DNA of 64,000 nucleotides from Squalus acanthias. Lineage: Eukaryota. Below, piece after piece: positions 56,201 through 61,942 of the stretch. The first letter of the stretch is position 1, and the number at the start of each line of letters is the position of its first letter. The stretch spans positions 372,001 through 436,000 of the forward strand of contig JASTWF010000332.1 of the NCBI GenBank assembly GCA_030390025.1. Reading direction: 5' to 3'. The translations under genes were made by a program, and so were the position numbers. The notes beneath the pieces are model-generated. The model was not told where the DNA came from, made no database searches, and saw nothing but the letters and a program-made list of their open reading frames with translations.

Positions 56201-59200
56201 TGAGTGGACGCTAAAGATCCCATGGCACTATTCGAAGAAGAGCACGCGAGTTCTCCCGGTGTTGTGGCTATCATTCATCCCTCAACCAACACCACTAGTA
56301 CAGATTATCTAGTCGTTTATCTCATTGCTGTTTGTGGGATCTTGCTGCTGCATTTGCCTACACAAAAACAGTGACTGCACCTCAAAACTACTGCATTGTT
56401 TGTGAAGTACTTTGGGACGTCTTGAGGATGTGAAAAGTGCACGTCCTTTCATTTACAATATATATAAACATGCAATTTAGTATCTAATGACAGTCCTCAT
56501 TTTAAAACTCTATTGGAGCTGTGATAGAGTGAGATTCTATTGGTAGAATATACAGTGGTTTTCAGAAATATTTTGTGGATTGAACACGACAGGTATTTTC
56601 TTATTTCAAAAGGGCGTTATACATCGAGACCTGAAGCCTGGAAATATATTTATTGACCAAGATGGAAGTGTGAAAATTGGAGATTTTGGTTTGTCCAGAT
56701 TCTGTACATCTCAGGTAATGTGTCTTGGTGTATGTGTATATTTTAAAAGATTTACATTTCTATTCGTTTGATTTGACTTTGATATGGAGCGACTATTCTG
56801 TCGTGTTCCTTTTTAGAAATTGTGGAACCTTTACAGTACATTTCGCTATTATAATTAAGGGTACAGCCCTTGAACTATGAGCATCATGCATTGAACTGTG
56901 GTTCACTGATGCCTCCCTTACACTGCCGATGTTGCGTCAATGCGTTGCTGTTTCCTGCACTGCAGTGATGGAAGATATACTGTATAAAACCGACAAGCCC
57001 TCATCGATACAATGTTTGGCGTCACTTGTGTAAGCCTTTAGAAAGGTGTTCATGTACTACATTGGTTGGAGTAGAACTGCAGCCATTGTGCAGTTCCATT
57101 GTATAATTTTAGGAACTCAAATTTAACAGAACCAAGTTACTCTTTGTCCTATAATACAGGTTCGAGTGGTTGAAAAGAGCCGGCTAAGCCTTCAGCTGTT
57201 GCGAGTGATTGATTGGAAATTTCAAGAGCAATCGAAGGCCGATAATCAATAGAACACTGCACTCCCTCATTAAACATTGATGCGGTTGAGCAATATAACT
57301 GAGACTGCCCGCTTACATCGCTGTTAGGAATATGGTCAATATTGCACTGGTGCTGTGGTATTATTGAGGTACCGCACTCCACAGTCTGCAGTGTTTTGAG
57401 TCATTTAGATCAGAGTCCATCCACTAAATACTACAAACTTACACGATCTGCAGTTTAATCAAGAAAACCTTTAGCACTGAGCTGGTCAATCTATGACTAA
57501 GCAAAGGTCTGGAGAACATAAAAAGTGAAGTTGAGTGAAAGAAAAGCTTGGTTATTTCAGCGTGATTTTCTTTGTGCAAGGACGGAATTGTTGATTAGAA
57601 TGCATTGTGTTCCATGTTTCAGGGCTGGAGAGAAACTTGGAGTGGGAGGGGGAGGATCCAGTTGTCGTGGTCCATGTTGGTACCAATGACATAGATAGGA
57701 CAAGGAAAGAGGTTCTGCTGAGGGAGTTTGAGCAGCTAGGGGCCAAATTAAAAAGCAGAACCTCGAGGGTAATAATCTCTGGATTACTACCTGAGCCACG
57801 AGCAAATTTGGCTAGGGTAAATAAAATCAGGGAGTTGAATGCGTGGCTCAAAGACTGGTGTGGGAAAAATGGGTTTTGCTTCTTGGGACACTGGCACCAG
57901 TACTGGGGCAGGAGAGAGCTGTTCCGTTGGGACGGACTTCACTTGGCCAGTGCTGGGACTAGTGTCCTGGCGAATCGAATAACTAGGGCTGTGGAGAGGG
58001 CTTTAAACTAATTAGTGGGGGGGAGGTTTCAAGAGAGCAAAAAATAAAAATGACAACAGAGAGGGTCATAGACATAGGTAGCAGTAGGGGAATCACAAAT
58101 CAGAGCGTGGCAGGAAGGGACAGAGTGTGTGGAGTAAAAGGTAAACTGGTAAAAAGTGAAAAAGCAGGAACTAAGTGCCACAAAGCATATTTGAAAGTTC
58201 TCTATCTGAATGCACGTAGCATTCGTAACAAAATAGACGAGTTAATGGCACAAATAACTACATATGGTTATGATATTGTGGCCATTACAGAAACATGGCT
58301 GCAGGGTGACAATGCCTGGGAATTAAACATACCAGGTTATTTAACGATCAGGAAGGACAGGCAGGAAGGAAGGGGAGGTGGGGTGGCTATGTTAATAAAG
58401 GAAGGAATCACTGTAATACAGAGTAATGATATTGGGTCAAAAAATCATGATAATGAAACAGTTTGGGTGGAGATAAGGAATAATAAGGGGAAAAAAACAT
58501 TAGTGGGCGTAGTCTATAGGCCTCCGAACAGTTGCAACTCTATTGGACGGAGTATCAATCAGGAAATAGTTGAGGCATGTAATAAGGGAACATCTATAAT
58601 TATGGGGGATTTTAACTATCATATTAATTGGACAAATCAAATGGGGCAGGGCTGCCTTGAGGATGAGTTCATTGAGTGTATTAGGGATGGGTTTCTTGAG
58701 CAGTATGTAACTGAACCGACCAGGGGGCAAGCAACCTTAGATCTGGTCCTGTGTAATGAGACAGGATTAATTAAAAATGTCCTAGTAAAGGATCCCCTTG
58801 GAATGAGTGACCATAACATGGTTGAATTCCATATTCAATTAGAGGGTGAGAAGGTTGGATCTCAAACAAGCGTGCTAAGCTTGAATAAAGGAGACTATGA
58901 AGGTATGCGAGCGGAATTGAGTAGAGTGGATTGGGAAAATAGATTAAAGGGTAAGACGACACATGATCAGTGGTGTACATTCAAGGAGTTATTTTACAAC
59001 TTCCAAAAAAATATATTCCACTGAAAAGAAAAGGATGTAAAAGAAAGGACAGTCATCCGTGGCTAAGTAAAGAAATTAAGGATAGTATTCGACTAAAAAC
59101 AAGGGCATATAAGGTAGCGAAATCTAGTGGGAGGACAGAGGATTGGGAAAACTTTAAAAGGCAGCAAAAAATAACAAAAAGATTGATTAAGAAAGGGAAG

Positions 59201-61942: not shown

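Follow-up and report, generated by a model that had tools for sequence, protein, structure and literature searches.

Does a retrotransposon that falls at the edge of a short, frame-essential exon rebuild the splice site or break the gene? The 64,000-nt stretch of shark DNA analysed here (the window) raises this question through a 3.6-kb element in a kinase gene. An earlier note on the same DNA had placed a young CR1 LINE inside the splice acceptor of a native 34-nt exon, whose upstream signals the tail of the element would now supply, and had named a recent null or hypomorphic kinase allele as the other possible reading. The young sense-strand CR1 LINE is there, as its domains and its 98–99% identity to the nearest copy examined confirm, and we therefore examine in turn the gene that it entered, the exact site, the manner of entry and the likely outcome for the transcript. 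Coordinates are collected in Table 1.

A GCN2-like kinase gene in the window

An exon upstream of the element matched nine elasmobranch proteins named eIF-2-alpha kinase GCN2-like, with identities of 72–90%. A spliced model covering the window and 70 kb downstream gave 23 coding exons, with GT–AG boundaries in all 22 introns and no stops or frame shifts outside exon 7, and its product shares 800 of 893 residues with the sawshark orthologue P0001. Exon 6 and each of the two flanks of the element have one match apiece in the genome. The host gene is single-copy and intact apart from exon 7, and is not a decaying pseudogene. Three details of the model concern exon edges. For the donor of exon 6 the spliced model tied between 56714 and 56729, and 56714 was set from the orthologues and from a putative-RNA contig of run X7; exon 7, being broken, entered the model from 61256; and exon 8 opens with two additional AGs, which form tandem acceptors at 61858 and 61862. 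The end of the gene is about 54 kb beyond the window. The contig that carries this conserved, single-copy gene measures only 532 kb, whereas the orthologues in other species are on contigs of 80–260 Mb.

The predicted protein resembles GCN2/EIF2AK4 in having a kinase with an insert followed by a HisRS-like region, and differs from it in its length of about 890 aa, in starting at the kinase (near residue 21) and in having neither an RWD nor a pseudokinase domain; both domains were absent from all three orthologues scanned. The HisRS-like match to PF13393 in the orthologues is weak (E 9e-4, below the cut-off). By phmmer, the best solved relative of P0001 residues 21–629 is GCN2 (E 2e-70). Because RWD and pseudokinase domains are missing and the genome has a canonical GCN2 exon elsewhere, on a different contig, the host gene is a paralogue and not EIF2AK4 itself.

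Table 1. Features of the host gene and of the inserted element (positions in the window)
Feature	Position	Strand	Basis
Coding exons 1–5	32097–32207, 44394–44697, 46991–47112, 49576–49638, 49913–50038	+	tblastn and spliced model against P0001
Exon 6 (HRDLKPGN...DFG), 102 nt, phase 0 end, donor CAG/GT	56613–56714	+	Spliced model; putative-RNA contig X7 covers 56611–56715
Native intron 6, 908 nt, intact, acceptor AG at 57621–57622	56715–57622	+	Empty-allele contigs cross into the exon
5' microhomology TCAGGG, common to host and CR1 ORF1	57619–57624	+	CR1 copies; empty allele
Exon 7, 5' stub (first two bases); next 17 bases missing from the window	57623–57624	+	Empty-allele contigs
5'-truncated CR1 LINE, 3617 nt (3626 with both microhomologies)	57625–61241	+	Sense to gene
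CR1 ORF1, 3' end (GDSL/SGNH esterase domain)	57625–58011	+	PF13472, E 7e-10
First in-frame stop when the native acceptor is read into the LINE	57692–57694	+	Translation
CR1 ORF2 (endonuclease and reverse transcriptase), two frames, split near 59004	57987–61000	+	PF03372, E 3e-14; PF00078, E 4e-31
CR1 tail, (TTCTTATG)3.6; last 3 nt (61242–61244) common to host exon	61216–61244	+	
Exon 7, 3' 48 nt, native donor at 61290	61242–61289	+	Orthologue match, empty-allele contigs, spliced model
Exon-internal AG, candidate in-frame cryptic acceptor	61254–61255	+	Score 6.6; 66-nt AG-free zone
Exon 8; weak in-frame alternative AG at 61860–61861	61854–61942	+	Spliced model

The element lies within a coding exon

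Contigs that carry the empty allele fix the site of insertion. Contigs of the DNA runs X1 and X2 (samples S1 and S2, which bear the same organism label) align with the window to 57624 and resume at 61242 with exactly 17 letters between, and the alignments extend for more than 800 letters on each side. A single contig of X4, over 61228–62050, shows the same 17 letters directly after the 57622 acceptor; in frame they read G-C-A-E-H-K-A and join F-T-Y-K. The empty site is thus seen in contigs of three DNA runs from two samples, and native exon 7 comprises 2 + 17 + 48 = 67 nt. The element sits inside this 67-nt activation-loop exon, where it has replaced 17 coding bases. The insertion allele is not fixed in the species, the empty allele being present in two samples; since X1, X2 and X4 may themselves be what the window came from, they lend no independent support to any allele frequency. 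At 61855 there is a silent marker: the window has T, and the empty-allele contigs and X7 have C.

Comparison with orthologues gave the same exon. Their activation loops read SRFCTSQ-GC(A/T)... after DFG, and positions 61241–61291 of the window already translate as part of the orthologous loop, so that the supposed acceptor cctataAG is coding sequence containing a Lys codon. We compared 43 orthologue proteins, drawn from 13 species, and 42 of them had a DFG-to-GT loop, which spanned 34–45 residues (39 residues in 30 proteins, 45 in four, 34 in four, 41 in three and 40 in one); none of these 42 loops had the 28 residues expected from a 34-nt exon. In the remaining protein exon 6 is skipped and HSQ runs directly into GCAEHK, which marks the same start of exon 7. 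By group, loops of 39 residues belong to most sharks, those of 34 to two batoids and those of 40–45 to some sharks or isoforms, and exon 7 shows changes at its two edges. Putative RNA from a close relative bears on the following junction: X7 matches through the G at 56715, and its next exon therefore does not start at the A of 61256, a result that fits either the native exon start or a skip. Cover of about 61852–61942 by X7 is deduced from bin depths and one row. Four of the eight putative-RNA runs of organisms A and B were compared; X6, X9 and X10 did not cover these exons.

These results refute the arrangement first proposed, in which the LINE stood 8–13 nt upstream of a native 34-nt exon, had duplicated a TTTCA word on insertion and had displaced the native intron sequence that carried the acceptor's upstream signals. 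The two TTTCA words, the CTTAT words of the tail and the frame arithmetic on which it was built are all in the sequence. However, the native acceptor is intact upstream of the element, and so is the whole of native intron 6, which runs into the exon in the empty contigs. Excision of the LINE and one TTTCA had been predicted to restore the original acceptor, yet the true empty site is 26 nt longer than this reconstruction, does not match it and, ahead of the supposed exon, codes for GCAEHKAFTYK; the orthologues, too, agree with an exon of 67 nt. Both TTTCA words (57617–57621 and 61243–61247) occur in the empty allele, 26 nt apart, as separate native words, one belonging to the acceptor and the other to Ala-Phe-Thr codons, and what the window has lost is the 17 nt between them. 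The segment 61256–61289 does measure 34 nt, is followed by a GT donor and keeps the frame of the exon that encodes the APE motif, but it is only the 3' half of exon 7. Likewise, the tgtttcAG that had been taken for a product of the 5' junction does read GWRETW... as far as the stop at 57692, but it is the native acceptor and was not made by the insertion.

A young CR1 and how it may have entered

The interruption, between about 57620 and 61244, is a 5'-truncated CR1-type LINE in the sense orientation. It has the remnant of an esterase ORF1, an ORF2 with endonuclease and reverse transcriptase, a 3' end of short tandem repeats and no poly(A), all of which are features of the CR1 clade. A tandem-repeat tail is characteristic of CR1. 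Canonical vertebrate CR1, in the part of PMC13343379 available to us, likewise has an esterase ORF1 and an endonuclease–reverse transcriptase ORF2 and is without poly(A) outside Zenon; the shark copy differs from it in having no 5' end and, as assembled, in a one-base frameshift of ORF2. This split near 59004 is a single A missing from an A run, and the extra A is present in family contigs of all four runs; either a consensus error or a real mutation may account for it.

Two observations show that the copy is young: the nearest copy examined (on contig C3547, from 47141 onward) matches it at 99.1% over a stretch of 784 nt and at 98.1% over one of 2851 nt, and only 59035, 59968 and 60236, among the positions listed, differ from nearly all family contigs. 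LINE polymorphisms that are at low frequency and under negative selection are common among non-mammalian vertebrates, according to the abstract of PMC5389967. The C3547 copy is longer at its 5' end and carries ORF2 frameshifts of its own. It was considered as an identical donor and rejected: identity is 100% over the first 372–398 nt but 98–99% overall, and the copy is itself frameshifted, within a comparison that scored 40 of 81 candidate copies. A further locus holds a CR1 copy that is 90% identical. The long introns of the host gene (29164–43345 and 50500–52700) contain many older CR1-like or reverse transcriptase-bearing fragments on both strands, and a second short TTCTTATG tail lies in them at 39970.

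Insertion removed 17 nt of the target and left 6 nt of microhomology at the 5' junction and 3 nt at the 3' junction, without a duplication. The TCAGGG of the 5' junction is carried by all 28 anchored CR1 copies (29 were fetched), each of which differs from the window one base upstream, and the empty allele of the host retains it as well; at the 3' junction tail and host have 3 nt in common, 61242–61244. With 17 nt lost and 6 nt shared, the insertion belongs with short target-site truncations, which the accessible text of PMC4245944 delimits by a target loss of 20 bp or less together with shared bases at the 5' junction. The element would have entered through target-primed reverse transcription, with the 3-nt match between tail and host as the priming site; the target would then have been trimmed and the truncated 5' end attached to it by annealing at TCAGGG. 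LINE inserts assigned to the 'annealing' pathway in the portions of PMC4245944 and PMC4760211 consulted are similar in their 5' truncation, 5' microhomology and loss of 20 bp or less. Those inserts were made by zebrafish and human elements in cultured cells, whereas the present one is a natural allele of a shark CR1 and belongs to a less common class; according to the same portions, the commonest outcome for inserts of the L2/CR1 clades is a short duplication (peak at 3–5 bp).

Predicted routes of splicing

The native acceptor now stands 3.67 kb (3667 nt) from the donor of its exon, and at that distance exon definition would be expected to fail. Transcripts would then skip the exon, with a frameshift, read into the LINE and stop after 23 codons, or use acceptors internal to the LINE and meet stops there; they would be degraded or would yield a kinase truncated ahead of the APE motif. 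The AG at 61254–61255 may also allow a minor in-frame product. Among 11 splice routes that we translated, eight stop early: the exon skip, which, as the earlier note had stated, shifts the frame of the APE exon, read-through, two routes from LINE donors, three to LINE acceptors and a skip to 61858. One further route, the skip of exons 7 and 8 together, is in frame and loses the APE motif. The other two are in frame and keep it, either through the exon-internal AG at 61254–61255 (loop of 28 residues) or by a skip to the weak AG at 61860–61861 (loop of 14).

Acceptors were scored with a matrix trained on the 21 other acceptors of the gene, a small set that serves only to rank sites. The real acceptors scored from -0.1 to 12.1 (median 7.9), and 20 of the 21 fell between 4.5 and 12.1. 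On this scale the native acceptor at 57621–57622 reached 8.7, the exon-internal AG 6.6 and the AG of exon 8 3.2, and two out-of-frame AGs within the LINE, at 8.3 and 7.7, ranked above the exon-internal one. A score as high as 6.6 was found in 2% of 957 intronic decoy AGs.

Discussion

We have located a young CR1 LINE inside an exon of a conserved shark kinase gene. The insertion of a LINE into an exon with a small deletion of the target is a known kind of mutation, and the window likely holds an ordinary, gene-breaking allele of this sort and not a case of new splice-site building. Loss or strong weakening of kinase function is the outcome that we consider probable for a young CR1 in the activation-loop exon. 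The disrupted exon, the early stops in eight of the 11 routes and the youth of the copy all fit the recent null or hypomorphic allele that had been offered as the second reading of this locus. We found no description of the insertion allele in the open papers searched.

Alu and L1 insertions in exons of human NF1, as set out in the part of PMC3219598 that was available, provide the closest comparison. In both genes an element within a coding exon weakens exon definition, and the NF1 outcomes of skipping, cryptic donors and a downstream cryptic acceptor (type 4) are routes equally open to the shark allele. Skipping accounted for six of 13 exonic retroelement insertions in that source and a downstream cryptic acceptor for one of 13. 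The shark element lies inside the coding exon, as in NF1 types 2–5; the arrangement of type 1, where the element falls within the native acceptor itself (its pyrimidine tract or AG), was not found, the acceptor at 57621–57622 being upstream and intact. The NF1 insertions differ in that they are products of the L1 endonuclease with poly(A), target-site duplications and measured effects on RNA, while the shark insertion is a CR1 with a microsatellite tail and a 17-nt deletion whose consequences are predicted from sequence.

A different fate for the transcript, which we think unlikely, is that the tail rescues splicing. The TTCTTATG tail would provide a branch point and pyrimidine tract to the AG at 61254–61255, the LINE and the exon stub would become intron, and a full-length kinase with a loop 11 residues shorter would be made. 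To this extent the proposal that the tail supplies an acceptor context, which fails for the native acceptor, retains some substance: the tail does place pyrimidines and CTTAT words, with the A at -19 and -27 of 61256 as first reported and a third at -35, before a candidate cryptic acceptor. This AG is the best in-frame one upstream of the donor at 61290, it follows a 66-nt zone free of AG and three CTTAT words, and its score falls within the range of 20 of the 21 real acceptors. The translated product is in frame at 877 aa and keeps the APE motif. Loop length is naturally variable, at 34–45 residues in the paralogue and 18–46 across 11 loops of related eIF2-alpha kinases; the empty allele has an AG 14–15 nt upstream of the same site; and a downstream cryptic acceptor has its precedent in the one NF1 insertion. 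However, exon definition would be weak, given an AAG acceptor, an exon of 34 nt and a donor that scores a modest 5.5, and the native acceptor and the two out-of-frame LINE AGs all outscore the site. Moreover, the tail is the ordinary tail of its family and shows no adaptation, and the site is used by none of the 42 orthologue isoforms. The broader idea built on such rescue is similarly doubtful: the CR1 tail, as a portable source of branch point and pyrimidine tract, would activate an otherwise silent AG within the disrupted exon and shift the junction by exactly 11 codons, the insertion would be a segregating, self-rescuing LINE allele with a working short-loop kinase, and CR1 tails would offer a general route to the remodelling of exon edges in sharks.

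Somewhat less probable again is that the insertion is an assembly error, or a somatic or mosaic event in the assembled tissue, with only the intact exon in the germ line. No contig with the insertion junction was found in X1, X2 or X4, the three DNA runs from which the window may derive, nor were the linked window bases (57485 G, 61855 T); contigs drop rare variants and X1 was read only in part, which leaves room for a carrier that is heterozygous or mosaic. The assembly totals 3.7 Gb, of which the contig with this gene makes up 532 kb, and the loss of one base from an A run in ORF2 is typical of long-read error. Against an artefact or mosaic, the ends are those of true retrotransposition (a 3' tail, 5' truncation, short microhomologies and a small target deletion), the flanks are single-copy, and no identical donor was seen among the copies examined (best 98–99%, with 40 of the 81 candidates scored). 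In addition, linked single bases distinguish the window from the empty contigs, as expected of a separate haplotype.

A probable loss-of-function allele of this kind provides a clean natural case of a recently active shark CR1 striking a conserved coding exon. It also carries a warning for annotation, in that the assembly contains the disrupted allele, from which gene prediction would produce a spurious 34-nt exon. If it were true that the tail rescues in-frame splicing, the locus would matter more, because CR1-group elements make up a quarter to a third of elasmobranch genomes (22–34% in the part of PMC13343379 available) and all have such tails.

The host gene may merit a study of its own as a shortened GCN2 paralogue that was found here only in sharks and rays, and no paper describing it was found among the open papers searched. 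Identity with 'PKR-sis' is unlikely; compared by description, from the accessible part of PMC11305385, the kinase domain of PKR-sis occupies residues 260–537, whereas the kinase of the host protein is N-terminal. The ten clusters of the paralogue (76–100% identity) all came from sharks and rays, and the next matches beyond them were canonical GCN2 and other eIF2-alpha kinases, with identities of 33% or less.
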